Source of the DNA: an uncultured Desulfobulbaceae bacterium
GTDB lineage: Bacteria; Desulfobacterota; Desulfobulbia; Desulfobulbales; Desulfocapsaceae
DNA length: 64,000 nt
Direction: 5' to 3'
Assembly (NCBI GenBank): GCA_947311315.1
Contig: CAMZKN010000065.1
Coordinates: 2,648 to 66,647, forward strand
Positions 5,092 to 25,264 of the stretch are shown in pieces. Below the pieces are notes generated by a model, which saw only the letters and a list, made by a program, of their open reading frames with translations, did no database searches and was not told where the DNA came from. Numbering within the stretch: the stretch's first letter is position 1; each line of letters starts with the position of its first letter. Both the position numbers and the translations under genes were made by a program.

Positions 5092-5104
5092 GTAACAATG
5101 TTCT
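5092..5104. promoter_or_regulatory. Candidate TetR operator GTAACAATGTTCT
   Basis: Matches the 13-bp palindromic consensus GTAAC(A/G)ATGTTAC found at 7 sites in this cluster; upstream of prpE. Confidence 0.6.
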
Positions 5105-5178
5105 TTTTTTTAGAAAAATGAACAGTAGTCTTTCAATATAGAACCATAAAAACAGATATATAGTGTATTTAAGGTTAA

Positions 5179-5191
5179 ATAACGATGTCAT
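5179..5191. promoter_or_regulatory. Candidate TetR operator ATAACGATGTCAT (weaker)
   Basis: Degenerate match to the same palindrome; upstream of prpE. Confidence 0.45.
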
Positions 5192-5308
5192 TTTTTGGAT
5201 AAATTAAACAAAAGATATTCATTTGTCTCGCTAGAGGATAAAACTAATCAACAGCTTGATAATATAAGGTAATTGGTTAAAACCCTATGTAGTGGTCGCT
5301 GGGTGAGT

Positions 5309-5321
5309 GTAACGATGTTAA
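5309..5321. promoter_or_regulatory. Candidate TetR operator GTAACGATGTTAA
   Basis: Strong match to the palindrome about 90 bp upstream of the prpE start. Confidence 0.65.
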
Positions 5322-5411
5322 ATTTAATACTTGAAGTATATACTGTGATGCTGTATACCATGCTATGGAGACTGGTGGATGGACTTAAAATTCAGACCAA
5401 AAGGAGTGATT

Positions 5412-7307
5412 ATGACTAGTTTTGATGAAGTGTTTCAAAGTAGTGTTGAAAATCCTGAGGCGTTTTGGGCGGAAGCTGCCAAGAGTATCACATGGTACAA
5501 AGAGTATGATAAGATCTTAGACGATTCCAACCCTCCTTTTTATAAATGGTTTCCAGGTGGTAAAATGAACACCTGTTACAATGCTATTGATCGTCACGTC
5601 GAGAATGGTCGCGCGGATCAGGTTGCAATAATTTATGACAGTCCTGTGACTGACACACTCCTTAAGATCACCTACAAAGAACTGCTCGAAAAAGTTTCTA
5701 CTTTTGCAGGAGCACTTGCCAGCCAAGGCGTTGGTAAAGGTGATACTGTTGTTATATACATGCCTATGATTCCCGAGGCGGCTGTTGCCATGCTGGCATG
5801 TGCTCGACTCGGTGCTATTCATTCTGTTGTTTTTGGTGGTTTTGCTCCCCACGAGCTTGCCATCAGGATCGATCATGCACAACCAAAGGTTATCGTAACC
5901 GCCTCGGGAGCTATTGAGGGTGTAAAGACTCTTGAATATAAACCTCTCGTTGACAGTGCCATAGAGCAATCTACCCATGAAGTGAGCAAAGTTATCCTCT
6001 TTCAACGTGATTTTGTGAAGTCTACTATGATTGATGGTCGCGATCTGGATTGGGTTGAACTGGTAAGCAACAGTCAGCCTGCTGACTGTGTGGAAGTTGA
6101 CGCAACAGATCCTCTTTATATTTTGTATACATCCGGTACAACAGGAATGCCTAAAGGTGTTTTAAGAGATAATGGCGGACATGCTGTTGCACTCCACTGG
6201 AGCATGAAGAACCTGTACGATATAGATCCTGGTGATGTGTGGTGGTCAGCTTCTGATGTTGGCTGGGTTGTGGGTCACTCTTATATTGTTTACGCTCCTT
6301 TGTTGCAGGGGTCTACGACAGTTTTTTATGAAGGAAAACCAATTGGCACACCTGATGCCGGTGCTTTCTGGAGAGTAATATCTGAGCATAAAGTAAAAGC
6401 ACTTTTTACTGCTCCAACTGCGTTCAGGGCAATTAAAAAAGAAGATCCTGAAGGTAAATTTTTTGAAAAGTATGATACTTCCTGTTTTGAATGTCTCTAT
6501 CTCGCAGGTGAGCGTCTGGATCCTGATACACTGCACTGGGCAGAAGACCTGCTAAAAGTTCCTGTTATTGATCACTGGTGGCAGACAGAGACAGGATGGG
6601 CTATTGTTGGTAACTGTCGTGGTATTGAAGAACTGCCTGTTAAAGAAGGCTCTCCGACTAAGGCCCTGCCTGGATATGATGTGCGTATTGTTGATGACGA
6701 TGGCGAGGTTGTACCAAAAGGTACTGAAGGGAATATCGTCTGTAAACTGCCGTTGCCTCCAGGAACACTAACTACCCTGTGGCGTAATGATGACAGATAT
6801 ATTCAGTCTTACATGACGAAGTTTCCTGGGTACTATGAAACCAGTGACGGTGGGTTTATAGATGAAGACGGTTATGTCTTTGTAATGGGCCGTATGGATG
6901 ATGTTATTAATATTGCTGGTCATAGGCTGTCGACGGGAGCAATGGAAGAGATTATTTCCAACCACCCGGATGTTGCTGAATGTGCAGTTTTTGGTGCTGA
7001 TGATCAATTGAAGGGACAGTTGCCGGTCGGACTGTTTGTTGTAAAGGCTGGCGTTACCAGAGATGGTGATGAGATTAAGAAGGAGCTGGTCAAAATGGTA
7101 CGTGAAGCGATTGGCCCGATTGCATGTTTCCGCGATGCGTGTCAGGTAGTGCGTTTGCCAAAGACACGTTCAGGTAAAATCCTGCGTGGTACAATGCGAT
7201 CAATTGCTAACAGCAAAGAGTACAGAATGCCTTCAACCATCGATGATCCGTCGATTCTTGATGAGATTACAGAATATCTGACCAAGATGGGTTACGGCAA
7301 GAAGTAA
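5412..7307 (+). CDS. prpE: Propionyl-CoA synthetase (acetate/propionate-CoA ligase)
   Basis: YTSGTTGMPKG AMP-binding motif, DHWWQTETG, PKTRSGKILR (acylatable Lys). Start at ATG 5412 after AAGGAG. Heads the methylmalonyl-CoA cluster. Confidence 0.9.
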   Translation: MTSFDEVFQSSVENPEAFWAEAAKSITWYKEYDKILDDSNPPFYKWFPGGKMNTCYNAIDRHVENGRADQVAIIYDSPVTDTLLKITYKELLEKVSTFAGALASQGVGKGDTVVIYMPMIPEAAVAMLACARLGAIHSVVFGGFAPHELAIRIDHAQPKVIVTASGAIEGVKTLEYKPLVDSAIEQSTHEVSKVILFQRDFVKSTMIDGRDLDWVELVSNSQPADCVEVDATDPLYILYTSGTTGMPKGVLRDNGGHAVALHWSMKNLYDIDPGDVWWSASDVGWVVGHSYIVYAPLLQGSTTVFYEGKPIGTPDAGAFWRVISEHKVKALFTAPTAFRAIKKEDPEGKFFEKYDTSCFECLYLAGERLDPDTLHWAEDLLKVPVIDHWWQTETGWAIVGNCRGIEELPVKEGSPTKALPGYDVRIVDDDGEVVPKGTEGNIVCKLPLPPGTLTTLWRNDDRYIQSYMTKFPGYYETSDGGFIDEDGYVFVMGRMDDVINIAGHRLSTGAMEEIISNHPDVAECAVFGADDQLKGQLPVGLFVVKAGVTRDGDEIKKELVKMVREAIGPIACFRDACQVVRLPKTRSGKILRGTMRSIANSKEYRMPSTIDDPSILDEITEYLTKMGYGKK

Positions 7308-7321
7308 ATTACGTTGATGTG

Positions 7322-7353
7322 GGCAGCTGTCTGAATTGACAGCTGCCTTTTTT
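7322..7353 (+). terminator. Intrinsic terminator after prpE
   Basis: GGCAGCTGTC-tgaatt-GACAGCTGCC followed by a T run. Confidence 0.8.
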
Positions 7354-7409
7354 CATGGAAAAACGGGATCGAATACTACTCCGGTTCCACTAACAAGGAC
7401 AATTTTTTT

Positions 7410-8567
7410 ATGAAGATCCACGAGTATCAAGCGAAAGAACTGTTTCGCAAGTATAATGTGCCGACTCCCGAAGGTGGTGTGAGCACCACTATAGAAGGCA
7501 TTTCTGAAACTGCTGCTCAACTGGGATTACCGGTTGCGGTAAAAGCTCAGATTCATGCCGGTGGGCGAGGCAAGGGTGGTGGCGTTAAAATTGCCAGGAC
7601 CAGTGAGGAAGTTTCACAGGCTGCAAACGCGATTCTTGGTATGACCCTTGTCACTAAACAGACCGGGCCTGAAGGAAGACTTGTTAAGACTGTCCTGGTC
7701 GAAAAAGGAGTGGGTATAAAGAAAGAATTGTACCTTTCGATGATTCCGGATAGAAGCACCGCGACGGTGACCATTGTTGCCAGTCAGGATGGTGGTATGG
7801 ACATTGAAGAAGTTGCCGCATCAACACCGGAACGAATTATAAAAGTACAGGTTAATCCTCTTATCGGAATTCGTGGTTATCACGTTCAGCAGGTGATCTT
7901 TGGACTGGAACTTGAAAAACCGGTGATGAAGGAATTTGGCGCTCTTTTAAGAAATTTGTATAATCTCTTTGTCGATTATGATTGTTCGATGCTTGAGATT
8001 AATCCGCTGATTATTACCGATGACGACCAAATAATAGCGCTGGATGCCAAGGTTGATGTCGATTCCAATGCACTCTTCAGACATCCTGATGTAGTTGCAA
8101 TGCATGATCCAAATGAGGATGATCCGGCCGAAGCTGAGGCTGCAAAATATAACCTCAACTATATCAACCTCGATGGAAATGTCGGCAATATGGTGAATGG
8201 CGCGGGACTTGCCATGGCGACAATGGATATTATCAAACAGGCTGGAGCCGATCCAGCTAATTTCCTGGATGTCGGAGGCGGTGCCGATGCTGAGATGGTT
8301 GAAAATGGTTTTCGTATCATTCTCAGCGATCCAAAAGTGAAGGGAATTTTGATTAATATTTTTGGTGGTATACTCAGGTGTGACATTCTAGCACAAGGAG
8401 TAGTGCAAGCTGCCGAAAAAATAAAACTGTCAGTTCCGGTGGTTGTTCGTATGGAAGGAACAAACGTCGAAGAAGGCAGAAAGATTTTGAGTGAATCTGG
8501 ATTGAAGCTGATAAACGCAGCCGATTTGTCCGATGCTGCTAAAAAGGTCGCCGAAATAGTCGCTTAA
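7410..8567 (+). CDS. sucC: Succinyl-CoA synthetase beta subunit
   Basis: MKIHEYQAKELF, KAQIHAGGRGKGGGV, NGAGLAMATMD, ANFLDVGGGA. Confidence 0.98.
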   Translation: MKIHEYQAKELFRKYNVPTPEGGVSTTIEGISETAAQLGLPVAVKAQIHAGGRGKGGGVKIARTSEEVSQAANAILGMTLVTKQTGPEGRLVKTVLVEKGVGIKKELYLSMIPDRSTATVTIVASQDGGMDIEEVAASTPERIIKVQVNPLIGIRGYHVQQVIFGLELEKPVMKEFGALLRNLYNLFVDYDCSMLEINPLIITDDDQIIALDAKVDVDSNALFRHPDVVAMHDPNEDDPAEAEAAKYNLNYINLDGNVGNMVNGAGLAMATMDIIKQAGADPANFLDVGGGADAEMVENGFRIILSDPKVKGILINIFGGILRCDILAQGVVQAAEKIKLSVPVVVRMEGTNVEEGRKILSESGLKLINAADLSDAAKKVAEIVA

Positions 8568-8613
8568 TTTCAATGTGTAGTTGGTCAGCGGTTCATAAGG
8601 TCACAATTAATAC

Positions 8614-8727
8614 CCTAACGCAAACAAGCTGCAAGTAAGTGCCTTGGAGGTATCTATTTATTTTTGTGGTCAAATACCCTTCTTCATTTTCTTTTTTTTA
8701 GCAGTAATTATGGAGTAAGGCACTAAA
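8614..8727 (+). repeat. Dispersed intergenic repeat, copy A
   Basis: CCTAACGCAAACAAGCTGCAAGTAAGTGCCTTGG...GGAGTAAGGCACTAAA. Differs from the reverse complement of 29717-29832 by 4 substitutions and a 2-nt indel. Confidence 0.92.
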
Positions 8728-8944
8728 CATAAGGTCAAATAATAAGGAGCAAGTCATGAGGGGCGTGCAACTATACGTTATTTGAGTTGTGTTGGTGAAG
8801 TTTGAGCAGGGTGGCTAATTGATCATCAAAAGCACTGTATTGGCGAAGAAGTTAAATTGATATGACGAATGCTGATCCGGTTGGGGTGGAATTTTGCCTG
8901 ACCTGATTGAGGAGCATGAGTAATTTTACTTTCAAAGGAAAACA

Positions 8945-9817
8945 ATGAGTATTTTAGTGAATTCCCAGACGCGTGTCCTCGTTCAGGGCATTACAGGTAA
9001 GGAAGGTAAGTTTCATACACAGCAGTGTATTGCTTACGGCACAAATGTGGTTGCAGGTGTTACCCCCGGTAAAGGTGGTCAGTCGATGGATTCAGTTCCT
9101 GTCTTCAATACGGTTCAGGAAGCGAGAAAAGAGACAGGGGCAAATGCCTCAATGATCCTTGTGCCGCCACCTTTTGCAGCAGATGCCATTCTTGAGGCGG
9201 TTGATGCCGGCATAGAGTTGGTCGTGTGCATTACGGAAGGTGTCCCTGTCGTTGATATGATGAAAGTCAAAAACTATCTTGAACAAAATAATACCAGACT
9301 CATTGGGCCAAACTGCCCAGGCATTATAACGCCGGGTGAGTGCAAGATCGGTATTATGCCAGGCCCTATCCATACACCAGGTGGGCCGGTGGGTGTAGTG
9401 TCACGTTCTGGTACCCTCACCTATGAAGTTGTCCATCAGTTGACGGAAGTTGGCCTTGGTCAGACAACGTGTATTGGTATTGGTGGTGATCCTGTAAATG
9501 GAACAGGTTTTATTGATTGCTTGAAAGAATTTAATGACGATCCTGCAACAGAAGCCGTTGTAATGGTTGGAGAGATAGGTGGGAATGCAGAGGAAGAAGC
9601 TTCTGCCTGGATCAAAGAAAACATGAAAAAACCGGTTGTAGGTTTTATTGCCGGACTGACTGCTCCTCCAGGGAGAAGGATGGGCCATGCTGGTGCCATA
9701 GTCAGTGGCGGTCAGGGAACAGCTGCAGCGAAAATTGAAGCAATGCAGAAGGCTGGTCTCTATGTTTGTGAGGATTTGGGTGCTCTTGGAAAGCTCTGTA
9801 AAGAAGCATTTTCGTGA
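8945..9817 (+). CDS. sucD: Succinyl-CoA synthetase alpha subunit
   Basis: [35 protein letters not shown] (phospho-His). Confidence 0.98.
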
Positions 9818-9891
9818 GAAAATGTTGGTGCACTATTGATCACGGATAGCGACTGCGTTACGTGCCGGGAATTATGATCCAAGGAGATGGA

Positions 9892-11442
9892 ATGAATACG
9901 AATGACCAGCTGGACCACCTGAAGACACTCAGAGCTGAAGCAAAGCTCGGAGGCGGTCAGGCCAGGATTGACAAGCAGCATGCAAAGGGTGCAATGACTG
10001 CAAGAGAACGGATAGATTTGCTCTTAGATAAAGGGTCTTTTGAAGAGTTTGACATGTTCAAAACCCATAGATGTACTGATTTTGGCATGGAAAAGCAGGT
10101 GTTTCCAGGAGATGGTGTTGTCACCGGACACGGTACAGTGGATGGTCGCATTGTCTATGTCTATGCACAGGACTTTACTGTACTTGGCGGATCTCTTTCA
10201 GAAACTGTTTCAGAAAAAATCTGTAAGATTCTTGATCATGGTATGAAAAATGGGGCTCCTGTTATCGGACTCAATGACTCCGGTGGAGCAAGAATCCAGG
10301 AGGGAATTGAAAGCCTTGCCGGATATTCTGAAATTTTTCAGCGAAATGTAATGGCTTCTGGAGTTGTTCCGCAGATTTCAACCATTTTTGGACCATGTGC
10401 CGGTGGCGCAGTCTATTCACCGGCTTTAACTGATTTTATAGTTATGGTTCAGAATCAGTCCTATATGTTTCTCACCGGCCCTAAAGTTGTGAAATCAGTT
10501 ACCCATGAAGATGTTACAACAGAAGCTCTCGGTGGTGCGGAAATGCATGCAAGCAGGAGCGGCGTGAGTGACTATGCTGCATCTTCGGGTGCGGAGGCGG
10601 TTGAATATGTACGAAAACTGCTCTCATTTCTGCCGCAGAACAATATGGAGAATCCACCATCCATTCCATGTGAAGATCCTAAGACGCGTGAAGCCGCAGA
10701 ACTTAACGCTATTGTTCCTGATAATCCGAATGCGGCTTATGATATGATGGAGGTTATTCTTCAAACAGTGGATAACAGGGATTTTCATGAGGTTAAAGAA
10801 AAATTTGCCCCGAACATCATTGTTGGTTTTGCACGATATAATGGAATGAGTGTAGGTATAGTTGCTAATCAACCTAAATACCTGTCAGGTGTCCTCGATA
10901 TTGATTCCTCTGTTAAAGGTGCACGGTTCGTGCGATTCTGTGACTGTTTCAATATTCCCGTAGTCACTTTTGTAGATGTACCTGGTTTTTTACCGGGAAC
11001 TGCTCAGGAATATGGTGGAGTCATCAGAAATGGCGCTAAAATACTCTATGCCTATGCAGAAGCAACAGTGCCAAAAGTAACTGTTATTACCCGAAAAGCA
11101 TACGGCGGCGCTTATTGTGTCATGTCTTCAAAACATCTTAGAGGTGATATGAATTATGCATGGCCATCTGCTGAAATTGCTGTAATGGGAGCCAAAGGGG
11201 CGTCCGGGGTTCTTTATGGAAGAGCGGCCGCTAAAGCTGAAGATCCTGCTGCATTTCTTGCTCAAAAAGAAAAGGAATACCAGGATAAGGTTGCAAATCC
11301 ATATGTAGCCGCACAGCGTGGTTATATAGACGATATTATAGAACCAGCTCGAACCAGAACCAGAATTATCAAAGCTCTTGGTCTGCTGCAGAATAAGCGG
11401 GATACCAACCCGATGAAAAAGCATGGGAATATTCCTTTGTAG
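9892..11442 (+). CDS. Acyl-CoA carboxyltransferase (PccB / transcarboxylase 12S-like)
   Basis: [50 protein letters not shown]. Start ATG 9892 after AAGGAG. Confidence 0.93.
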
Positions 11443-11510
11443 TAGCGCTGATACTGGCACTGGCAAAGAGCAAAGATTCTGATAAGCTGAAATTGCATTG
11501 AGGAGATAAA

Positions 11511-11795
11511 ATGACAGTAAAAATAATTATCCAGAGAAAAGTAGAGAGTGAAAATTTTGCAGAACTTGCTCTTTTGCTAAAAAAATTACGTGCACTTACT
11601 CTTGAGCAACCTGGTTATATTTCAGGTGAGACTCTCAACAGGATTGACAGAAAAAACGAATCAATGGTGATTAGTACCTGGCGCTCTGTCGAAGATTGGA
11701 ACACGTGGGTAAATAATCCGAAACGTACCGAAATTCAAAAACAGATTGACACGCTTTTAGGTCAGCAGACGGAATACGCAATGTACAACGTCTGA
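11511..11795 (+). CDS. ABM (antibiotic biosynthesis monooxygenase) domain protein
   Basis: QPGYISGETL, VISTWRSVEDWNTW pattern; GAGGAG RBS. Confidence 0.8.
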   Translation: MTVKIIIQRKVESENFAELALLLKKLRALTLEQPGYISGETLNRIDRKNESMVISTWRSVEDWNTWVNNPKRTEIQKQIDTLLGQQTEYAMYNV

Positions 11796-11865
11796 TCCTG
11801 TTTTCATTGGAGTTATCCGCCTGTTTTACTACAGGCATTACAATTTTAATCAGTGGGTGAGTTTG

Positions 11866-12069
11866 ATGGCAGGTAAAGGGAAGAAAGTTGCAGCTGCGCT
11901 TGCTGCGGTAAGTCTCTATCTGCAGGAAGAAGAGGCAATGGCTCAGGAACAGCAGAACATTCAAGTTAACAAGAGAGTTCCTGAGTTCAGCCAGTGGGGA
12001 CAGAGTGGTCGACAGGATATGATGACCATGCGTAGATTAGTGCAATTGAGAACATTCACACGTTTTTAA
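11866..12069 (+). CDS. Small carboxyltransferase accessory (epsilon-like) subunit
   Basis: VAAALAAVSLYL...SQWGQSGR pattern resembles acyl-CoA carboxylase epsilon subunits. Lies between the carboxyltransferase and the biotin subunit. Confidence 0.55.
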   Translation: MAGKGKKVAAALAAVSLYLQEEEAMAQEQQNIQVNKRVPEFSQWGQSGRQDMMTMRRLVQLRTFTRF

Positions 12070-12123
12070 ACAGATTTTTATATAAATTATAACGGTTACA
12101 GACCAGGCGATAGGAGAAATAGG

Positions 12124-14100
12124 ATGAGTGATCAAGTGAAGATGACCCCATTGGATTATTCCGCAGAGCGGCCGGCGGCAAAGAATCCGGTTAAAATTAT
12201 GGATTTGTCCCTGCGAGATGGACATCAGTCTTTATTTGCGACCAGGGGCCGTACAGAAGATATGATTCCGGTTGCCGAAATGATGGATGAAGTTGGTTTC
12301 TGGGCGATAGAAACCTGGGGTGGTGCAACCTTTGACACCATGCACCGATTTCTCAATGAGGATCCCTGGGAGCGACTGAGAACGTTAAAGCGTTATATTA
12401 AAAAGACACCATTTTCCATGCTTCTTCGAGCGCAAAATCTCGTTGGATACAGGAATTATGCCGATGATCTTGCGTATGCTTTTGTAGAAAGGGCCGCTGA
12501 AAACGGTATGGATGTTTTTAGAACATTTGATGCGTTGAACGATTATAGAAATTTTGAAACTGTAGTCGAGCAGATCAAAAAATGTGGTAAACATTTTCAG
12601 GGCTGTATCTGCTACACTTTAACTGAACCTCGGCTTGGTGGTGAAGTATACAATCTTGAGTACTATACGGATCGTGCAAAATCGCTTGAAGATATGGGTG
12701 CTGATTCTGTATGTATTAAGGATATGGCCGGTCTGCTTGCTCCTTATGATGCGTATCCGCTGATTAAGGCTCTTAAAGAAGTTGTGAAGATACCTATTCA
12801 TCTGCATAGCCACTTTACTTCAGGGATGTCACCGATGACCCATCTTAAGGCTATTGAAGCTGGTGTGGATATTATCGATACATGTATGACACCCTATGCC
12901 TACAGAACATCCCATGCCGCAGTGGAGCCACTTGTAATGGCGCTTCTTGGTACGAATCGTGATACCGGTTTTGATATTAAGAAACTCGCTGCAATTAACG
13001 AGATATTTGAAAAAGAAATTCTACCCAAATATAAGCATCTGCTGGATGATTCAAAAGTTTCAATTATTGATATTAATGTGTTGTTGCATCAGACACCTGG
13101 TGGGATGTTGTCCAATCTTGTTAATCAGTTAAGAGAGATGGATGCCCTTGATAAAATTGACGAAGTATATAAGGAGCTGCCGAAAGTTCGTAAAGATCTT
13201 GGACAGATTCCGCTGGTAACACCGACAAGTCAGATCGTAGGTGTGCAGACTGTTAACAACGTGTTGCATGATACTCCGGATGAGCGATATAAAATGATCA
13301 CCGGGCAGGTAAAAGATCTCTGTTATGGTTTGTATGGTAAAACCGCAGTACCTATTGATGCGGAACTGCAGAAAAAAGCTCTAAAGGGCTATCCAAGGGG
13401 CGAAGAACCTATAACCTGTAAGCCTGCAGATGTACTCGAACCCGAGTTGGAAAAGGCCAAGGCAGAGATTGGAGATCTTGCTGTAGATCTCGACGATCTT
13501 ATCCTGTATGCTCAATTTCCCGTTACAGGCAAAAAATTTCTGGAATGGAAATATGGCAAATCCGAGCCACCTGAAAGTGTTAAGGCTATAACACTTGATG
13601 ATGTAAAGAAAAAAGATGAGATCCTTAAAAAGGCCAAAGAAGGAAAACTTATTGAAGCAAAAGGTGACGAACCTGCAAAATCAGGTAATGTCAGGACCTT
13701 TAATGTTTTTGTAGACAATGAATATTACAACGTTGAAGTTGATCCTACCGGAGATGCTCCCGTATTGTCTGTTGCGCCACCTGCAGCTGCGGTTGTATCG
13801 TCGGCACCAGCTGCTACAGTTCCTGCTAGCGCTGCACCTGCAGCACAAACAGCAGCCCCCTCTGAACCTTCTTCTGCTCCAGTAGATGGAACCGTATTGC
13901 TCGCTCCCATGCCTGGAATGATAATTAAATATGAAAGAGCTGAAGGTGATCAGGTAAAATCCGGTGATACTATTGTTGTCCTCGAGGCAATGAAGATGGA
14001 AAATTCTCTTACTGCTCCCTGTGATGGCACAGTGCAGGGTATTAAATTTGCTAGTGGAGACACAGTGTCCAAAGGTGCAGTGCTGTGTATAATCAGCTAA
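12124..14100 (+). CDS. Pyruvate carboxyltransferase (5S/OadA-like) fused to a C-terminal biotin carrier
   Basis: DLSLRDGHQSLFATR, ETWGGATFD, IKDMAG, HLHSH, PLVTPTSQIVG; Ala/Pro linker; LEAMKME biotinylation motif. Confidence 0.93.
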   Translation: MSDQVKMTPLDYSAERPAAKNPVKIMDLSLRDGHQSLFATRGRTEDMIPVAEMMDEVGFWAIETWGGATFDTMHRFLNEDPWERLRTLKRYIKKTPFSMLLRAQNLVGYRNYADDLAYAFVERAAENGMDVFRTFDALNDYRNFETVVEQIKKCGKHFQGCICYTLTEPRLGGEVYNLEYYTDRAKSLEDMGADSVCIKDMAGLLAPYDAYPLIKALKEVVKIPIHLHSHFTSGMSPMTHLKAIEAGVDIIDTCMTPYAYRTSHAAVEPLVMALLGTNRDTGFDIKKLAAINEIFEKEILPKYKHLLDDSKVSIIDINVLLHQTPGGMLSNLVNQLREMDALDKIDEVYKELPKVRKDLGQIPLVTPTSQIVGVQTVNNVLHDTPDERYKMITGQVKDLCYGLYGKTAVPIDAELQKKALKGYPRGEEPITCKPADVLEPELEKAKAEIGDLAVDLDDLILYAQFPVTGKKFLEWKYGKSEPPESVKAITLDDVKKKDEILKKAKEGKLIEAKGDEPAKSGNVRTFNVFVDNEYYNVEVDPTGDAPVLSVAPPAAAVVSSAPAATVPASAAPAAQTAAPSEPSSAPVDGTVLLAPMPGMIIKYERAEGDQVKSGDTIVVLEAMKMENSLTAPCDGTVQGIKFASGDTVSKGAVLCIIS

Positions 14101-14252
14101 GGATATAATATCTGCTTTCTCATCAGACCGAGTGTGAAATGGTACTTTTCCCTCCCTGTACCTTTCATGCTCTGTCTGTTTCTTCTGATAACTTCCTCTG
14201 TGTCTGTAGGTTTTCGTACGATAGAAATGGTCTTGAGTATCGGAGATGATTT

Positions 14253-14762: not shown

Positions 14763-14771
14763 AACGATGTG

Positions 14772-15767: not shown

Positions 15768-15936
15768 GGCTGGGAATTTTTGATGAATTATGTACGTATA
15801 ACACTATGAATGTAACAGTTTAGCAGTGCCTTGCATGTTCACGATTGGTCCAATTAGCAGATAAGCGACAGACTTCGATACATTTGTATGCTGATTGGAC
15901 TAATCGTGGGCAGGTGAGGTGCTGATGAATTGTTAT

Positions 15937-15991
15937 AAAAAACGCAACAGATCCAGTTGCAAAGCGAGGGAGAACAACCGGATCCGTTGCG
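15937..15991 (-). terminator. Intrinsic terminator after the mutase gene
   Basis: 17-bp stem (15943-15959 / 15975-15991). The two mismatches are G.U on the minus-strand RNA, and a U6 tract follows. Confidence 0.7.
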
Positions 15992-16006
15992 GTACTACAG
16001 GAGACG

Positions 16007-18151
16007 CTATCCCAGATACTTCTCTTCCAGGAGAGTAAGTGTTTTTCCGGCGGATTCCGGAATAGGTGTTCCGGGTCCAAAAACTGCCTTAACGCCGCTG
16101 TCAAAAAGGAAGTCATAGTCACCTGGTGGAATGACTCCTCCGGCTACAACGAGAATTTCCTCCCCGCCTGCTTTTTTAAGTTCTTCAATCAGTGCCGGGA
16201 TAAGTGATTTGTGCCCGGCTGCAAGACTTGAAGCGCCAACAACATGGACATCATTCTCAATGGCCATTTTTGCGGCTTCCTCCGGAGTTTGGAACATCGG
16301 ACTGATATCAACATCAAATCCAAGATCAGCATAAGCGCTGGCAACAATTTTAAAGCCACGGTCGTGACCATCCTGCCCCATCTTCGTGACGAGCAGGCGT
16401 GGGCGTCTACCCTGTTTTTCAAGAAAAGTTGTAGTTCTCTTTTTAATTTCATCAATGGCACCACTGTCTCCTTTATATTCAGAAGAGTAGGCACCTGAAA
16501 TGCAGCGGGTAGTCGCAACAAAACGACCAAAGACACTTTCCATGGCATCGGATATCTCACCCACGGTAGCTCTTGCTCGAACTGCAGGAAGGGCTGCTTC
16601 AAGGAGGTTGCCGTCGTTTTGTGCAGCAGCTGTAAGGTCAGCAAGTGCTTTCTCAACAGCTGTCTGGTCGCGAGTGGCTTTGATTTCTTTTAATCTGGCC
16701 ACTTGCTCATCCCGAACAGTGCCAGGAACTTCACGTACATCAAAATCAATTTTTTCATCTTCAAGCTTGTATTTATTCACTCCAACTATGACGTCAAGGC
16801 CCTGATCAATAAGAGCCTGTTTTCTTGCAGCGGATTCTTCGATACGCATTTTGGGCATACCGGTTTCAATAGCCTTTGCCATGCCGCCCAGTTCTTCGAT
16901 TTCGTCTATAATTTTCTGTGCTTCACTGATTATGCTGTCGGTGAGAGATTCAACGTAGTAGGATCCTCCCAACGGGTCTATGACATGACAAATTTGCGAT
17001 TCTTCCTGAACGATAATTTGCGTGTTTCTTGCAATTCGGGCAGAAAAATCAGTTGGTAGTCCAATAGCTTCGTCAAAGGAGTTGGTGTGCAGAGACTGGG
17101 TGCCACCAAGAACTGCGGTCATTGCCTCCATCGTTGTACGGATCACATTGTTGTATGGATCCTGTTCGGTGAGGCTCCAGCCGGAAGTTTGGCAATGGGT
17201 TCGCAACATCGATGATTTCGGGTTTTTGGGATTAAACTGACTCATCAGGCGGTACCAGAGGAATCGTGCAGCCCGAAGCATGGAGATATCCATGAAAAAA
17301 TTCATGCCAATGCCAAAAAAGAAAGAAAGTCTCGGTGCAAATGTATCGATATCCATGCCACTCTTTAGGGCAGCTTTGACGTATTCAACACCGTCGGCCA
17401 GGGTAAATGCCGTTTGCAGAACGCTGTTTGCCCCCGCCTCCATCATGTGATACCCACTGATACTGATGGTGTTGTATTTGGGCATGGTGGTGGAGCAGAA
17501 TTCCATGATGTCTGAGATAATCCGCATGGATGGACCTGGTGGATAGATGTAGGTGTTTCGTGTGAGGTATTCTTTGAGGATGTCGTTCTGGATTGTTCCT
17601 GAAAGTTGATCGTGGCTGACACCCTGTTCTTCTGCGGCAACAATATATCCGGCGAGGATCGGAATAACCGCACCGTTCATGGTCATTGAGACAGACATCT
17701 TGTCAAGGGGAATACCGTCGAACAATATTTTCATGTCTTCCACGGAATCGATAGCAACGCCAGCTTTGCCAATATCGCCCGCGACTCTAGGGTGATCTGA
17801 ATCGTATCCGCGATGTGTTGCCAGGTCAAAAGCTACAGAAAGGCCTTTTTGGCCTGCCGCAAGAGCCTTGTGGTAAAAGGCGTTTGATTCCTTGGCGGTG
17901 GAGAATCCCGCATATTGTCTGATAGTCCACGGCCGACCTGCATACATTGTAGCCATGGGGCCACGCACGTAGGGAGCCATTCCCGGTAGCGTGTTTGCTG
18001 ATTCCATGCCCTCAAGATCTTCAGCAGTATACAAAGGTTTAACGTTTATACCTTCCGGGGTCATCCAGTCGAGTTTATCGACGGCTTTACCCTTCATTTG
18101 CTTGGAGGCGAGTTCCGCCCATTTTTGATATTCAGGATGTTTTGACATCAT
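16007..18151 (-). CDS. scpA: Methylmalonyl-CoA mutase (B12-dependent, full-length catalytic subunit)
   Basis: [49 protein letters not shown]12-binding motif; 714 aa. Confidence 0.98.
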
Positions 18152-18227
18152 CTACTCCTCGGTTGCAGAGAACAAAAAAAATAAAAAACATCACATCATC
18201 CCCTGGCAGGGGGAAATGGTGGTAATG

Positions 18228-18632
18228 TTATGAACGTTCACAAAGTTCTACGAGAACTCCGCCTGTAGCTTTCGGGTGCAAAAAGGCAATTTTAGCACCA
18301 CCCGCACCGATTCTGGGTTTCTGGTCGATAAGTTGAATGCCTTTTTCTTTCAGTTCCTCAAGTGCGGCTTCTATATCGGCGACACGAAAGGCAACATGCT
18401 GAAAACCTGTGCCTTTTTTATCAATAAACTTTGCAACAGGGCCGTCAGGAGAAGTTGATTCCAGCAACTCTACTTCGCTCTCTCCAACTGGGAAAAATGC
18501 TGTTGTAACTTTTTGTGCTTCCACTGTTTCTGACCCTTCGAACTGTAGCCCAAGAACTTCTGTCCAGAAATTTTTGCCATCTTCTATATTGTTCACGGCA
18601 ATGCCCAAATGATCAATCTTCAGTATTTCCAT
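18228..18632 (-). CDS. mce: Methylmalonyl-CoA epimerase
   Basis: IDHLGIAV, EVELLE, GFQHVAFRV, AFLHPKATGGVLVELCE. Start at ATG 18632 after GGAGG. Confidence 0.96.
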   Translation of the reverse strand: MEILKIDHLGIAVNNIEDGKNFWTEVLGLQFEGSETVEAQKVTTAFFPVGESEVELLESTSPDGPVAKFIDKKGTGFQHVAFRVADIEAALEELKEKGIQLIDQKPRIGAGGAKIAFLHPKATGGVLVELCERS

Positions 18633-18685
18633 ATCATCCTCCAAAATCTTAATCAGAATTTTACCAAATTCGGTATGTTTATGGT

Positions 18686-19318
18686 TTATGTTTCACGGTT
18701 ATTGGAATCAGTACGAGAGTTTTGTGTTGAATTTTCAGGGTTGGCCATACCCTGCCATACCATTTCAAACATGATGTTGGCCTGTTCGGACAGACTTTCC
18801 TGTTTGCCGCGAAGTATCCACATAAAAAAGCTCCGCTGGACAAATCCCATCAGGAAGTCGAGAAGAACAGCTGCTCGGACGTGTGGATTAAAAACTCCTT
18901 CTTTTTGCCCCTGCCTCAGAACATCAATCATGAGAGACATCATTCGAGGCTGGGCAAATGTTTCATCAACCATCCAGGTTTTCATGGGAAGTGTCATGAA
19001 GACAATTCTGCCTAATCCTTCGTGTTTCTCGTAGTAATCGAGTTGTAGCCAGAAAACTTTTCGGAGTTTTTCTTTCAGATTCTCAATGCCCTGGAGGTGA
19101 TCGATAATGCGATCAGTAAGTTTTCCCATCCAGATGTCAACAAAAGCGAAAACCAGACGTTCTTTGCTGCCGTAATGTTTGTAAATAGTGGTAAAACTAA
19201 CTCCGGCTTTGTTGGCAATTTCCCGAATGGAAGCTTTGTGAAAATCTGAATGTGAAAAGACTTCGAGAACAGCTCGTTCAAGTCTTTGATGGATATCTTC
19301 GTTTAGGTCATCTAACAT
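18686..19318 (-). CDS. TetR/AcrR family regulator (paralog 1)
   Basis: FHKASIREIANKAGVSFTTIYKHYGSKERL HTH; closely similar to 23333-23941. Confidence 0.93.
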   Translation of the reverse strand: MLDDLNEDIHQRLERAVLEVFSHSDFHKASIREIANKAGVSFTTIYKHYGSKERLVFAFVDIWMGKLTDRIIDHLQGIENLKEKLRKVFWLQLDYYEKHEGLGRIVFMTLPMKTWMVDETFAQPRMMSLMIDVLRQGQKEGVFNPHVRAAVLLDFLMGFVQRSFFMWILRGKQESLSEQANIMFEMVWQGMANPENSTQNSRTDSNNRET

Positions 19319-19324
19319 TGTTAC
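19312..19324. promoter_or_regulatory. Candidate TetR operator overlapping the TetR-1 start codon
   Basis: CTAACATTGTTAC (reverse complement GTAACAATGTTAG). Confidence 0.6.
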
Positions 19325-19503
19325 TGTTGTATGTTCTCTGTGGATAATTAAAGAATTGTAGAAAAGTTATGTCGTTGAAAAAACGATATTATTAAGTTTG
19401 CAATTCGTGTAAGTGTATACTTGTTATTGGCGCGATTGTGTTTGTAACTAACTGAAAAGTAATGTTAAAAATAAAAAGCAAGCCAATAAATAATAGTTAT
19501 TGG

Positions 19504-19516
19504 ATAACATCGTTAC
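19504..19516. promoter_or_regulatory. Candidate TetR operator upstream of TetR-1/mce/mutase
   Basis: ATAACATCGTTAC (reverse complement GTAACGATGTTAT); 12 of 13 nt identical to the site at 5309. Confidence 0.65.
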
Positions 19517-19680
19517 GCATATGTTGTAATGCATTGCGTATTTCTTTTCAAGTAAAAAGCGGTTTCTGCATGTTTTATGGAGTATTTAACTGGCGAAAAG
19601 AACATTGTCTGGAAAATGCAGGTGAGGGTTGGAAGAGCAGTAAACAATGATTCATTTGGGCTCTTCCAACCTTCTGGATA

Positions 19681-20844
19681 TTATTTTCCGAAAAGAGACA
19701 AGAGTACGCCCGCTGAAACAGCAGAGCCTATAACGCCTGCAACGTTGGGGCCCATGGCATGCATAAGCAGAAAGTTTGATGGATCTTCTTTCTGTCCAAC
19801 CACCTGGGAGACTCTTGCCGCCATGGGGACTGCCGAAACTCCAGCCGAACCAATAAGCGGATTGATGTTGAGATTGAGAAATTTATTCATCACTTTTGCC
19901 AGGAGAACACCGGAAGCGGTGCCTATGGCAAAAGCTGTTACCCCAAGAGTTAGAATCGCAAGTGTTTCAACGCGTAAAAATTGTTCTGCTGTAGCCGTTG
20001 CGCCAACTGTAACACCAAGAAAAATGGTGATAATGTTGATAAGGGTATTTTTGGCTGTATCTTCGAGTCGTGCGACAACGCCACATTCCCTGAAGAGATT
20101 GCCTAGCATTAACATACCAATAAGTGTCGCAGCTGGTGGTACCATAAGTGAAACAATAATTGTTACAATTATGGGGAAGATGATTTTTTCACGTTTACTG
20201 ACATCTCTGAGCTGGGTCATTTTAATGGTCCGCTCGCTTTTTGTTGTCAATAATCGCATGATAGGCGGTTGTATGATTGGTACCAAAGCCATATAGGAAT
20301 AGGCGGCAATGGCTATGGGGCCGAGGAGGTGGGGTGCAAGTTTTGAAGAAAGAAAAATTGCAGTTGGACCGTCTGCGCCGCCTATTATTCCTATTGACGC
20401 GGCTTCTTGGGCAGTGAACAGTCCGGATGCGATTGCACCGATAAAGGTGATAAATATACCAAATTGAGCAGCAGCTCCGAGTAAAAGTGATTTTGGATTT
20501 GCGATTAGCGGGCCAAAATCAGTCATTGCACCAACACCCATGAAAATCAGTGGAGGAAAGATACCCAGATGGTCACCCTGAAAGAGATAATACAACAGGC
20601 CGCCGGGTTCGATTGTGTGGATTACGTTGCCTGTGATTTTCATCACCGGTTCTGTCATGAGCCCTGCATAAGGGAGGTTGGTCAGTAGGACGCCAAATGC
20701 TATGGGAACAAGAAGTAAGGGCTCGAATTTCTTAACAATGGCCAGGTACAGCAAAAGGAAAGAAACGCAGAGCATTAGAACCGCTCCTGTAGTTAAGCCA
20801 TAAAAACCTGTGGATCTGAAGAAGTCGAGAAGAGCTTCCAGCAT
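19681..20844 (-). CDS. mmdB: Na+-translocating decarboxylase beta subunit (MmdB/OadB)
   Basis: [63 protein letters not shown]. Confidence 0.96.
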
Positions 20845-20859
20845 GGTAAGTGTCTCCTT

Positions 20860-21258
20860 TTAAGATGACAGCACGATGAGGGTATCACCTGCGTTAACGG
20901 ATGCGTCTTTGGTGACGTTGATTTCCTTGACAGTGCCGTCAGTTGTGGCCATGATTTCATTTTCCATTTTCATAGCCTCCAGCACAAGGAGAGGTTGCCC
21001 TTTGGTTACTTTGTCACCAACACTTACCATTATATTGAGCACAGTACCGGGGATGGGAGCAACGAGTGCGCCACCGGTCGGGGCTGAATCAGCTGCAGCT
21101 TGAGGCTGCGTTGCTTTGGGGGTGGCTGGTTTAGGTGCTGCTGGTTTTGGAGCGGGGGTAGCGGTATTCTGGACAGGGGCGGGGCTGTGTCCCTCTGTCA
21201 ATTCTTCAATTTCAACTGTGTATTCACTGCCGTTGACGATAACTCTGAACTTTTTCAT
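20860..21258 (-). CDS. mmdC: Biotin carboxyl carrier (gamma) subunit
   Basis: MKKFRVIVNGSEYTVEIEE, Ala/Pro linker, LEAMKMENEI. Confidence 0.92.
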   Translation of the reverse strand: MKKFRVIVNGSEYTVEIEELTEGHSPAPVQNTATPAPKPAAPKPATPKATQPQAAADSAPTGGALVAPIPGTVLNIMVSVGDKVTKGQPLLVLEAMKMENEIMATTDGTVKEINVTKDASVNAGDTLIVLSS

Positions 21259-21276
21259 ATCTTTCCTCTGTCGTAA

Positions 21277-21687
21277 TTATAATCTGTTGTTCATCAGGTC
21301 GGTGATACCTGCCTGACTCCATACCGAAGTCGAAGGTTTGCTCTTCTTGATGTTTCTGATGACAATATTGTCCACGGATGTTGCCATCTTCATGGCAATA
21401 ACACTACTCATTACTGCTATTAGCTCTTTGTCGTCCTCGATGTTCTCTGGCCTGGCCTCAGGTTCTGTTTTCTCTGGAATGCTTGATGCAATTTCTGCTT
21501 TGTTTGCAGGTCTATTGAGAAGTTTATCCATCCATGAAATAACAAACTGCAAAACGATGAGGGCTGAAAAGGTGATTCCCATTCCGAGGCAAACGGTGAC
21601 AAGCCCTGCCATCATTTTGTCTGACATAGAGAGAGACTGAATGATTTCCGGGTCACTAAATTTGGTCAGGAGTTCACTGATAGTCAT
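21277..21687 (-). CDS. mmdD: OadG/MmdD family membrane-anchor (delta) subunit
   Basis: One TM segment LGMGITFSALIVL, IAVMSSVIA, C-terminal SVWSQAG. Confidence 0.85.
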   Translation of the reverse strand: MTISELLTKFSDPEIIQSLSMSDKMMAGLVTVCLGMGITFSALIVLQFVISWMDKLLNRPANKAEIASSIPEKTEPEARPENIEDDKELIAVMSSVIAMKMATSVDNIVIRNIKKSKPSTSVWSQAGITDLMNNRL

Positions 21688-21702
21688 GTTGTCTCCATGG
21701 TG

Positions 21703-23250
21703 TTAAAGTGGAAGGTTTCCATGTTTTTTGGCGGGTCGTTTTTCGCGTTTTCCCTTGAGCATCATAAAGGCATCAATGATTCTTTGGCGACTCGTCTGCG
21801 GCTCGATAACGTCGTCGACAAAACCACGTTCGGCAGCTTTGTAAGGTGTTGCAAATTCAGCAGCGTATTCGTTGATAATTTTTTGTTTGGTAGCTGCTTT
21901 ATCTTCGGCTTTGGCGATATCATTTTTGAAAATAATGTTAACCGCTCCCTCTGATCCCATGACGGCAACTTCTGCAGTCGGCCAGGCAAAAACCATGTCG
22001 GCACCTAAAGATTTTGAGCACATGGCAACATAGGCACCACCGTATGCCTTGCGGGTGATAAGGGTTACTTTCGGGACAGTGGCTTCACTGTAAGCATAAA
22101 GGATTTTTGCCCCGTGCCTGATGATGCCATTATATTCCTGGTTTGTGCCAGGGAGAAATCCAGGAACATCGACAAGGGTGAGAAGTGGGATGTTGAAAGC
22201 GTCACAGGTTCTGATAAATCGTGCAGCTTTGTCCCCGGCATTCATATCAAGACACCCGGCCATAACATTTGGTTGATTGGCGACTATACCAACTGATTTA
22301 CTGTTTATTCGTGCATAGCCGGTAATAAGATTTGTGGCAAAATATGGCAGATATTGCAGGAAATAACCATCGTCGACCAGGGGAACAATGACGTCGAGGA
22401 TGTCGTATGGTTTGTTCGGGTTGTCTGGGATTATGTCGTTGAGTTCAGAAATCTGTCTGTTTGGGTCGTCAGTACAGGGGGTGTCCGGTGCAGTTTCCAT
22501 GCTGTTTGAAGGTAGAAACTGCAATAATTCTCTAATGCTGGCCAGACAGTGCAGTTCTGATTCTGCAAGAAAATGAACATTGCCACTGACGCTGTTGTGG
22601 GTCATTGCTCCACCAAGATCTTCAGCGGAGACGATTTCACCGGTTACTGTTTTAATGACCTGTGGGCCGGTGATGAACATCTGTGATGTCTTGTCGACCA
22701 TTATAATGAAATCAGTTAAAGCAGGGGAATAAACAGCTCCGCCGGCGCAAGGACCCATAATTGCAGAGATCTGTGGGATAACGCCGGAATAGATAGAATT
22801 TCTGAAAAAGATATCTCCAAAACCGTTTAGAGCGTCGACGGCCTCTTGGATTCTTGCACCTCCAGAGTCGTTGAGGCCAACCATTGGGGCCCCGATTTTG
22901 GCAGCGGCATCCATTGCTTTGACGATTTTTCTGGAGTGCATTTCACCCAACGCTCCACCGGTAATGGTGAAATCCTGAGAATATGCGTAAACGATTCGCC
23001 CCTCAATCCGCCCGTAACCTGTGACCACAGATTCACCTTCGACATCAAGGTTTTCCAGGCCAAATCGGTTGCACCTGTTTTTAATAAAGGCATCTGTCTC
23101 GATGAATGTTCCTTCGTCAAAAAGATGGTGAAGGCGTTCCCTTGCCGTCATTTTCCCTTTTGCGTGTTGTTTTTTTATTCTGTCCTGGCCACCTCCAAGA
23201 GCAAGTTTTTCCTTTTTCTTAATTAAAAGATCTTTTTTATCCAAAGACAT
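21703..23250 (-). CDS. mmdA: Methylmalonyl-CoA decarboxylase alpha (carboxyltransferase) subunit
   Basis: [42 protein letters not shown]. Start ATG 23250 after AAGGAG. Followed by the delta, gamma and beta subunits. Confidence 0.9.
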   Translation of the reverse strand: MSLDKKDLLIKKKEKLALGGGQDRIKKQHAKGKMTARERLHHLFDEGTFIETDAFIKNRCNRFGLENLDVEGESVVTGYGRIEGRIVYAYSQDFTITGGALGEMHSRKIVKAMDAAAKIGAPMVGLNDSGGARIQEAVDALNGFGDIFFRNSIYSGVIPQISAIMGPCAGGAVYSPALTDFIIMVDKTSQMFITGPQVIKTVTGEIVSAEDLGGAMTHNSVSGNVHFLAESELHCLASIRELLQFLPSNSMETAPDTPCTDDPNRQISELNDIIPDNPNKPYDILDVIVPLVDDGYFLQYLPYFATNLITGYARINSKSVGIVANQPNVMAGCLDMNAGDKAARFIRTCDAFNIPLLTLVDVPGFLPGTNQEYNGIIRHGAKILYAYSEATVPKVTLITRKAYGGAYVAMCSKSLGADMVFAWPTAEVAVMGSEGAVNIIFKNDIAKAEDKAATKQKIINEYAAEFATPYKAAERGFVDDVIEPQTSRQRIIDAFMMLKGKREKRPAKKHGNLPL

Positions 23251-23332
23251 GTATTCTGCTCCTTGATAAATGTTTATCAGTATTACGGCGGACATATTCA
23301 GCCGCGCTTTTTAAATTACCGATCGAGGTATT

Positions 23333-23941
23333 TTACTGGTCGATATATTGAAGAGTTGTGGGGTTGACCATTCCCTGCCATACCATCTCAAAAAGACCAT
23401 TTGCCTCTTTTGCCAGATGTTCCTGCTTGCCACGAATTATCCACATAAAAAATGTACGCTGAATAAATCCAAGCATAAAATCAAGCAGAGATCCGGCCCG
23501 CATATGAGGATTGATTACCCCCTGTTGCTGTCCGGTTTTGAGTACATCTATGATGAGGTTGACCCGTCTTCGCTGGTCAAAACTTTCATCTGCCATCCAG
23601 GTTTTCATAGGCAGGGTCATAAAAAGAATCCTGCCTAATGCTTCGTTTTTTTCATAATAATCGAGATGGAGCCAGAAAACTTTTCTGAGTTTTTCCTTTA
23701 AGTCTTCTATTCCTTTCAGGTGGTCTTCGATGCGATCGGTTAGTTCGCTCATCCATATATTGACAAAGGCAAAAAGTAATCGTTCCTTGCTGCCATAATG
23801 TTTGTAAATGGTTGTGAAACTAACGCTTGCACGTTCAGCTACATTGCGGATACTTGCTTTGTGAAAATCGGAGGTGGAGAAGATTTCCAGTACCGCTTTT
23901 TCAAGTCGTTGTCTGACTTCGGGGTTAAGTTCGTCTAGCAT
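23333..23941 (-). CDS. TetR/AcrR family regulator (paralog 2)
   Basis: FHKASIRNVAERASVSFTTIYKHYGSKERL; paralog of 18686-19318. Confidence 0.93.
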   Translation of the reverse strand: MLDELNPEVRQRLEKAVLEIFSTSDFHKASIRNVAERASVSFTTIYKHYGSKERLLFAFVNIWMSELTDRIEDHLKGIEDLKEKLRKVFWLHLDYYEKNEALGRILFMTLPMKTWMADESFDQRRRVNLIIDVLKTGQQQGVINPHMRAGSLLDFMLGFIQRTFFMWIIRGKQEHLAKEANGLFEMVWQGMVNPTTLQYIDQ

Positions 23942-24016
23942 TGTTCGTTTGATTTGATGAGAGATCTGAGTGGCATAGCATCAACATAGCGTGTAGCGTT
24001 GAATATGTTATTGTTT

Positions 24017-24029
24017 GTAACAATGTGAA
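24017..24029. promoter_or_regulatory. Candidate TetR operator GTAACAATGTGAA
   Basis: Match to the palindrome upstream of TetR-2/mmdA. Confidence 0.55.
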
Positions 24030-24075
24030 AAAATAGAACTAAGTAGTGGACAAGGAAAAACTTGGCAAGGCAAGC

Positions 24076-24088
24076 GTAACATTGTTAC
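24076..24088. promoter_or_regulatory. Candidate TetR operator, perfect palindrome GTAACATTGTTAC
   Basis: Perfect 6-1-6 inverted repeat upstream of TetR-2/mmdA. Confidence 0.7.
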
Positions 24089-24339
24089 TGTCCATTTACC
24101 GTGAAAATGATTTCTTTGTCAAGGGAAATAATAATCATTTGTCCAGGCGGTGATTACCGATAATCTGGTGCAGGCGCGATTTAGGGCGATAAGAGAGTGA
24201 CTTTTTGCGTTTTAAATGTAGTGAGGAGATTTTGTTTTAAGAAAAGATGTTGAAAATTGTGTTTTAAAAATGCTAGGCTGTATTTCTTGCATGAAATGTA
24301 TCTGACAATTTTCAAGGCAGTCTCAAGGAGAACTTTATT

Positions 24340-25205: not shown

Positions 25206-25264
25206 GGAGCGTTAAAAGAAGAAAAGGGAAAGGCAATTTTAAACCGAGAAACAGGGAATGGCAT

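Follow-up and report, generated by a model that had tools for sequence, protein, structure and literature searches.

Which regulator governs the genes of the methylmalonyl-CoA pathway, and through which DNA sites, is the question raised by a 64,000-nucleotide stretch of contig CAMZKN010000065.1 from an uncultured Desulfobulbaceae bacterium (hereafter, the window). A complete methylmalonyl-CoA pathway cluster spans 5.0-24.3 kb of the window and, according to NCBIfam and Pfam, contains a prpE-like ligase gene, sucCD, 12S/5S transcarboxylase genes, meaB, mutase and epimerase genes, mmdADCB, and two TetR genes (tetR1 and tetR2, encoding TetR-1 and TetR-2). An earlier note on this DNA had described seven copies of a palindrome in front of the three transcription units of the cluster and had read them as a TetR operator coordinating both arms of the cluster; this reading was supported by all in silico tests. 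Judging from the sequence evidence, it is quite probable that TetR-1 and TetR-2 bind GTAACA-W-TGTTAC and regulate their own expression.

All seven 13-mers were found at the positions given by the earlier note, six being intergenic and one lying on a start codon, namely that at 19312-19324, which holds the ATG of TetR-1. The palindrome is real, but its consensus, written earlier as GTAAC(A/G)ATGTTAC, is better given as GTAACA-W-TGTTAC, an odd palindrome of 6-1-6 layout. The sites starting at 5309, 19312, 19504, and 24076 fit GTAACRWYGTTAC with at most one mismatch, and the core TAAC-N3-GTTA is found at these four positions and nowhere else in the 64 kb. Weaker matches are those at 5092 and 24017 (two mismatches) and 5179 (three mismatches), and the pattern alone, when up to three mismatches are allowed, is at background level (48 matches in the window versus 34 expected).

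A position weight matrix (PWM) was built from 146 sites of orthologous loci, with the window sites excluded. The scan with this matrix confirmed the sites in the window: 24076, 19312, 19504, 5309, 5092, and 24017 took ranks 1-6, and 5179 took rank 11. Four matches in the window reached at least 14 bits versus 0.21 expected, and seven reached at least 10 bits versus 1.16 expected. At a threshold of 8 bits, the three intergenic regions of the cluster (1,430 bp in all) contained seven matches and coding DNA four, while none occurred in 7,906 bp of other intergenic DNA, where the motif had also not been seen by eye. The PWM matches at 49444, 26846, 62689, and 14479, all inside coding regions, were treated as chance matches. 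The AT-matched null was a Markov-1 model trained on the cluster intergenic regions and run for 5,000 simulations at a threshold of 10 bits; six matches were observed in the 1,430 bp versus 0.077 expected, and none of the 5,000 simulations reached six.

Positions of the probable operator in the window and in related loci

The conservation set comprised 73 genome loci around TetR orthologs and nine around PrpE orthologs, which were mapped with the window proteins and examined as 20-kb stretches. In about 80 Desulfobulbales loci, the sites in front of each unit were found at fixed positions, with offsets of about -220 and -6 for tetR2, about -195 and -6 for tetR1, and -320 and -102 for prpE. In alignments with a mean column identity of 41-60%, the invariant columns corresponded to the operators, the -35/-10-like hexamers, and the ribosome-binding regions. 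Genomes without tetR2 retain the distal/middle/proximal module in front of mmdA; where tetR1 stands within an operon, it is the first gene of that operon that has the sites; where all the genes form a single long operon, they precede the 12S gene; and in locus L083 a tetR gene with a start-codon site lies immediately upstream of prpE. The negative control, consisting of 80 loci of distant PrpE homologs (metagenome scan; nearly all of them 60-69% homologs from other taxa), gave four core matches, one of which was the start-codon site of the L083 tetR gene, and none at -102.

Promoters were predicted from the conserved alignment columns, as a simple consensus promoter/terminator scan was uninformative (41 sites versus 36 expected). 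At both tetR genes, -35/-10-like hexamers are followed 5-6 nt on by an operator, which therefore covers the predicted transcription start, the classical position for a repressor. The predicted tetR1 promoter is TTGAAA-17-TACAAC (19523-19551, minus strand), with CTTGAA invariant and ATACATTACAAC conserved in the alignment, and the operator at the predicted start (19504-19516; minus strand GTAACGATGTTAT) begins 6 nt after the conserved -10. This operator was present at about -182 to -222 in 43 of 69 orthologs, comprising every case in which tetR1 is preceded by an upstream region of its own. The predicted tetR2 promoter is TTGACA-17/18-GTAAAT/TAAATG (24094-24122, minus strand), in which CTTGACAA is invariant in 13 aligned loci. 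Five nucleotides after its -10 stands the perfect operator GTAACATTGTTAC (24076-24088), the top PWM match in the window; of 32 orthologs, 30 carry it with no more than one mismatch at about -176 to -285, and 28 of these are perfect.

Most tetR2 orthologs and about half of the tetR1 orthologs have a further operator at -6, centered on the tetR start codon. The tetR1 copy in the window (minus strand GTAACA-ATG-TTAG; 19312-19324) holds the ATG (19318-19316, minus strand) and a TTA codon; the ATG forms the center of the palindrome, and TTA, the codon of Leu-2, is part of its right half-site. Of the 52 tetR genes with Leu at codon 2, 48 use TTA, and in loci of at least 55% GC 10 of 10 genes do so versus 0.06 expected, TTA accounting for less than 1.5% of the Leu codons of neighboring genes. 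The upstream TAAC and the TTA codon appear and vanish jointly (87 concordant and 9 discordant cases). The retention of TTA in GC-rich genomes and its co-occurrence with TAAC indicate that selection on the start-codon site acts at the DNA level and not at the protein level. The weak equivalent at the tetR2 start, which the earlier note had placed at 23935-23947, is a degenerate remnant in the window (minus strand CGAACAATGCTAG, four mismatches), but a strong site (GTAACAATGTTAG) stands at exactly the same position in 27 of 32 tetR2 orthologs.

Weak sites were also found in both tetR leaders. That of tetR1 (GTATACTTGTTAT; minus strand ATAACAAGTATAC; about 19412-19424) is an eighth site, beyond the seven reported earlier, and corresponds to a conserved block AATAACAAnACTACAC at about -108, with two-mismatch matches at -107 to -109 in L007, L016, and L018. 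The middle site of the tetR2 leader (GTAACAATGTGAA; 24017-24029) scored 11-12 bits with the PWM, and only its GTTAC half and the adjacent ATAACAT are kept in orthologs. The tetR2 leader of the window is without a segment of about 100 columns that is found in most aligned relatives.

At prpE, the distal operator (GTAACAATGTTCT; 5092-5104) lies at -320 from the ATG and was found at this offset (range, -222 to -330) in all nine orthologous prpE loci; its imperfect right half, GTTCT, is itself conserved in eight of them. The middle weak site or half-site (ATAACGATGTCAT; 5179-5191; PWM score of 8.0-8.8 bits) lies 87 bp past the distal site, has the alignment consensus AATAACAATGTCnTTTTT, and aligns with AATAACAATGTC; at the same +87 offset, the mmdA modules of genomes without tetR2 carry a GTAACA half-site. 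The proximal operator (GTAACGATGTTAA; 5309-5321), about 217 bp past the distal one, has invariant GTAAC..TGTT columns in 10 loci and a conserved offset of -102 from the ATG. It precedes the predicted sigma-70-type promoter TTGAAG-17-TATACC (5331-5359, plus strand), whose hexamers and spacing are conserved in the alignment, and the distal and middle sites are farther upstream. No sigma-54 (-24/-12) promoter was seen by eye in the conserved alignment blocks upstream of prpE.

The start of prpE was assigned to 5412 and not to 5379, in view of the conserved Shine-Dalgarno sequence AAAAGGAG and the 631-aa products of relatives. The 5' untranslated region of the gene (5366-5411; GGAGACTGGTGGATGGACTTAAAATTCAGACCAAAAGGAG) is almost invariant across nine relatives and, because of a stop after the upstream ATG, is non-coding in most of them; no supported RNA structure (-2.5 kcal/mol, no compensatory pairs) and no Rfam match were found for it. 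In many relatives (L157-L161, about 1-2560), genes for a dCache sensor histidine kinase and a sigma-54-dependent response regulator are divergent from the prpE operon, and the window has rfbB, rfbC, and prfC upstream of prpE instead.

The strong sites are paired, with 64 of 75 consecutive pairs being 180-230 bp apart. The spacing clusters at 188-192 bp for tetR1 and at 207-219 bp for tetR2, prpE, and mmdA, with a weak site in between, and the DNA between the paired strong sites is AT-rich and poorly conserved. These results suggest that the three-site layout is a duplicated module of constrained length, which may reflect cooperative binding. Strict helical phasing of the pairs was unsupported (distances of 188-219 bp), and looping is therefore speculation.

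TetR proteins and proposed regulation

The two TetR paralogs named by the earlier note are 73% identical, and their recognition helix is identical (SFTTIYKHYGSKER). Both matched PF00440 (TetR_N) above the cut-off (E values of 7.5e-11 for TetR-1 and 5.6e-09 for TetR-2), and PF08359 (TetR_C_4, YsiA-type) was barely over its cut-off of 21 with 21.8 and 26.7 bits; this second domain is precomputed in most homologs too. The AlphaFold2 model showed nine helices with a predicted local distance difference test score (pLDDT) of 77.6, which fits the all-alpha TetR fold of about nine helices and about 200 aa. The nearest PDB entries by sequence profile were those of Bacillus subtilis FadR (1VI0, 3e-14; 3WHB, 1.1e-13), and Foldseek returned 217 TetR-family matches in the PDB at E values of at most 0.001, of which ranks 1-13 were all FadR with template modeling (TM) scores of 0.71-0.82 (best, 5GP9/3WHB/3WHC with TM scores of 0.76-0.82). 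TetR-2 is a lineage-specific paralog of TetR-1.

Two close homologs were examined for co-variation of helix and operator. In L030 (9880-9920), a variant recognition helix (YKNFNSKEK) goes with a different palindrome (TGTATTGTACTATACA) inside the promoter, and in L162 (1020-1040), GGTACC-CATGG-TAG, a symmetric variant of the start-codon site, is located at the start codon. The comparison is confined to a small sub-clade with only one variant helix (L030, which has no motif), whose nearest relative, L162, has the canonical helix without the canonical site.

The TetR proteins were taken as the binders on account of the palindrome layout, the overlap of the sites with the tetR starts, the likeness to FadR, and the gene content of the cluster, in which no transcription factor gene other than the two tetR genes was found. 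One TetR dimer would bind one palindrome. In both tetR-led operons, the predicted transcription start would be covered by one operator and the tetR start codon by another, located about 190-220 bp farther downstream, and the ligand-free regulator would shut off its own operon; sites over the predicted transcription starts and start codons of tetR are a positional signature of such autoregulation. The prpE-sucCD-transcarboxylase operon would be joined to the circuit via three sites upstream of its promoter, and coordination would extend to all three units, namely prpE-sucCD-transcarboxylase, tetR1-mce-mutase-meaB, and tetR2-mmdADCB. By analogy, the ligand is likely an acyl-CoA of the pathway, and propionyl-, methylmalonyl-, or succinyl-CoA would be expected to release TetR from the DNA.

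Several observations weigh against this proposal. The NCBIfam FadR equivalog NF053878 gave 64.0 and 64.7 bits versus a cut-off of 200; the TetR proteins are therefore relatives and not orthologs of FadR, and the ligand is not transferable by orthology. L030 and L162, which are outside the pathway cluster, are without the GTAACA site, and the helix of L162 is canonical. The prpE-proximal site is centered at about -51 from the predicted transcription start, upstream of the -35, a position more usual for activators, UP-element occlusion, or looping. Since a dCache kinase and a sigma-54 regulator adjoin prpE in many relatives, other regulators may act there, and the only metatranscriptome found to contain contigs of about 90% similarity gave no 5' ends.

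The position of the prpE-proximal site bears on a dual mode of action, in which TetR would repress its own two operons and would activate the prpE operon or act on it through an upstream loop, the ligand tipping the balance toward either the transcarboxylase arm or the Na+-pumping decarboxylase arm. After the site at about -51 come first a conserved AT-rich stretch and next TTGAAG-17-TATACC, the distal-proximal distance is held at 211-219 bp at prpE, mmdA, and tetR2, and TetR-family activators exist, M. tuberculosis FasR being among the family and fold matches. We nevertheless regard a dual mode as unlikely: the prpE promoter is a prediction, the spacing of 188-219 bp shows no strict helical phasing, and the presence of the same three-site module in front of mmdA in genomes without tetR2 argues against opposite control of the two arms. 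Very unlikely, in our view, is the binding of the palindrome by another transcription factor encoded elsewhere, with the TetR proteins recognizing something else. The canonical helix of L162 without a canonical site and the further regulators flanking prpE in relatives would be in keeping with such a factor, but in dozens of genomes it is the predicted transcription start and the start codon of the tetR genes that coincide with the sites, and the sites move with tetR when the gene order changes (L083; single long operons). In addition, a 13-bp odd palindrome suits a single TetR dimer, and the window has all the sites without the sigma-54/sensor genes.

That the matches arose by chance in AT-rich intergenic DNA, or represent RNA hairpins, is exceedingly improbable. 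Three of the seven sites do carry two or three mismatches, a level that is itself near background in the window, but six matches against 0.077 expected from the AT-matched null, positions conserved in about 80 loci, and the absence of matches from 7.9 kb of other intergenic DNA speak against chance. As for hairpins, the motif had a predicted folding energy of just -1.2 kcal/mol, the value for the start-codon copy being 0, and the distal prpE sites are upstream of the predicted promoter, where they would not be transcribed.

Autoregulation by TetR-1 and TetR-2 through the palindrome is the preferred reading, and beyond simple one-site repression it might be extended to a higher-order TetR complex on a copied three-site module, with an operator that fixes the N-terminus and paralogs that integrate two signals. 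In this extension, a strong distal site, a weak site about 87 bp on, and a strong proximal site at about 190-220 bp would make up a module with copies ahead of prpE, mmdA, and each of the tetR genes; the start-codon operator would fix the TetR N-terminus as Met-Leu with the rare TTA; and the paralogs, with identical DNA-reading helices and diverged ligand domains, would let two acyl-CoA signals choose between the transcarboxylase route and the Na+-pumping decarboxylase route. Taken as a whole, the extension appears quite unlikely.

Transcription units and neighboring genes

Unit 1, prpE-sucCD-transcarboxylase (5412-14762, plus strand), was defined by NCBIfam and Pfam matches and by the same gene order in related loci. 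It consists of the prpE/acs-like acyl-CoA ligase gene (5412-7307), sucC (7410-8567), sucD (8945-9817), and genes for the 12S carboxyltransferase (9862-11442), a small ABM-domain protein (11511-11795), the 5S subunit fused to a biotin carrier (12124-14100), and a hexapeptide-repeat protein (14253-14762). Unit 2, tetR1-mce-mutase-meaB (14772-19318, minus strand; synteny in about 70 loci), contains tetR1 (18686-19318; TetR_N and TetR_C_4), the methylmalonyl-CoA epimerase gene (18228-18644), the methylmalonyl-CoA mutase gene (16007-18151), and meaB (14772-15767). Unit 3, tetR2-mmdADCB (19681-23941, minus strand; NCBIfam, and synteny in the 31 loci with both tetR genes), contains tetR2 (23333-23941), mmdA (21703-23295), the gene of an oadG-like subunit (21277-21687), mmdC for the biotin carrier (20860-21258), and mmdB for the Na+-pumping beta subunit (19681-20844); the four genes that follow tetR2 specify a Na+-translocating methylmalonyl-CoA decarboxylase. 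A terminator-like hairpin after mmdB (19627-19671, minus strand), read from the sequence as a 12-bp perfect inverted repeat (GGTTGGAAGAGC/GCTCTTCCAACC), separates units 3 and 2.

The full pathway set for oxidizing or forming propionate, as in Desulfobulbus, is present, with mutase, epimerase, MeaB, a carboxyltransferase system, succinyl-CoA synthetase, and a propionate-activating enzyme. The mutase (1227 bits), epimerase (160 bits), MeaB (494 bits), and SucCD scored above the NCBIfam cut-offs, whereas the 12S/5S transcarboxylase-like proteins, the mmdA/B/C/oadG-like proteins, and the prpE/acs-like ligase gave these families as top matches, yet under the equivalog cut-off. TetR homologs and syntenic loci were found in Desulfobulbales/Desulfocapsaceae, for example in Desulfopila, Desulforhopalus, Desulfotalea, and Desulfomarina. 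Near-identical matches to the window DNA occurred mainly in epibiont and hydrothermal-vent metagenomes, which suggests that the window comes from a vent-associated Desulfobulbales epibiont; a possible point of comparison is 'Candidatus Desulfobulbus rimicarensis', an epibiont of Rimicaris (PMC7117923).

The plus-strand hexapeptide-repeat open reading frame (ORF) at 14253-14762 has strong Pfam support and is overlapped by an opposite-strand ORF within 14097-14762; it is probably a real gene closing the prpE operon. The minus-strand ORF, of 144 aa, had no family match; antisense shadows may account for its tblastn matches in relatives. The spacer between sucC and sucD (8568-8944) is unusually long (377 bp) and contains a conserved inverted repeat, CATCAAAA ... 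TTTTGATG, at about 8820-8862, which is clearer in relatives. In a metatranscriptome of a related organism, contigs reached a very high depth (97-162) at 8528-8875, and the spacer may act as an internal promoter or processing site or encode a small RNA; no Rfam family matched in the spacer or across the window.

Divergent from tetR2, a YtnP-like lactonase of the metallo-beta-lactamase fold is encoded by ORFs 24340-24651 and 24603-25205, which overlap and are in different frames. The gene is seemingly one continuous ORF in relatives, and the split copy (24340-25205) is either a frameshifted pseudogene or an assembly error. Farther on, 25172-26949 encodes an AcuC-like protein of the histone-deacetylase family and an AcuB-like CBS-domain protein, which keep their synteny with the cluster in almost every related locus, and in some relatives a fused acetyl-CoA hydrolase/GNAT acetyltransferase is divergent from prpE. 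By analogy with AcuABC/AcsA of B. subtilis, these neighboring genes hint at control of the acyl-CoA ligase by lysine acylation.

Significance and comparison with known regulators

In anoxic sediments, digesters, and host-associated communities, a key step in the flow of carbon is the turnover of propionate via the methylmalonyl-CoA pathway. In the literature, nothing was found on this regulator, on the motif, or on transcriptional control of the pathway in Desulfobulbales, where such control appears to be undescribed. The analysis provides a precise operator, a predicted regulon of three operons, and candidate short-chain acyl-CoA sensors with possible use as biosensor parts, together with a clean case of a regulator gene whose coding sequence is constrained by its own regulatory site. 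It is useful for annotation and experiments and leaves the general view of TetR regulator action unchanged.

TetR repressors of acyl-CoA metabolism are well known, and FadR of Thermus is also one. The closest likeness is to FadR/YsiA of B. subtilis and B. halodurans (1VI0, 3WHB, 3WHC, 5GP9, 5GPA, and 5GPC), which has the fold and the domain pair in common with the cluster TetRs. Bacillus FadR/YsiA proteins are repressors of acyl-CoA metabolism that are released by acyl-CoA and bind palindromic operators near their targets. The identity to Bacillus FadR is only about 17-21%, however, and FadR targets beta-oxidation, whereas the sites of the cluster TetRs precede methylmalonyl-CoA genes only and the cluster has no fad genes. 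The likely ligand here would be a short acyl-CoA, while that of FadR is long, and the operator sequence presumably also differs from the FadR box.

Rv0158 is a TetR protein tied to propionate/methylmalonyl-CoA metabolism that binds methylmalonyl-CoA. It is likened to the cluster TetRs by description; it belongs to a different phylum and has different targets (methylcitrate cycle, prpR), direct control of which was left open by its paper. Genes for propionyl-CoA carboxylase or for branched-chain keto-acid metabolism are reportedly repressed by the TetR proteins PccD and SACE_1906 (Saccharopolyspora erythraea) and BkaR (mycobacteria) (PMC12890868, PMC3920632). These three are actinobacterial, have other operators, and are likewise set beside the cluster TetRs by description. 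They are reportedly encoded beside acyl-CoA carboxylase-type genes and govern propionyl-CoA/methylmalonyl-CoA supply, and we know of none among them with a start-codon operator or a three-site module.

In the TetR/tetO system, an odd palindrome with a central base and half-sites of 6-7 bp accommodates one dimer, and autoregulation proceeds via operators at the promoter. The 6-1-6 odd palindrome of the cluster has the tetO layout. Unlike in tetO, a second operator lies about 200 bp downstream on the start codon of the regulator itself, and the predicted regulon consists of three operons of central metabolism. The system is otherwise not surprising in principle; what is unusual is the operator embedded in the start codon together with a conserved three-site layout spanning about 190-220 bp.

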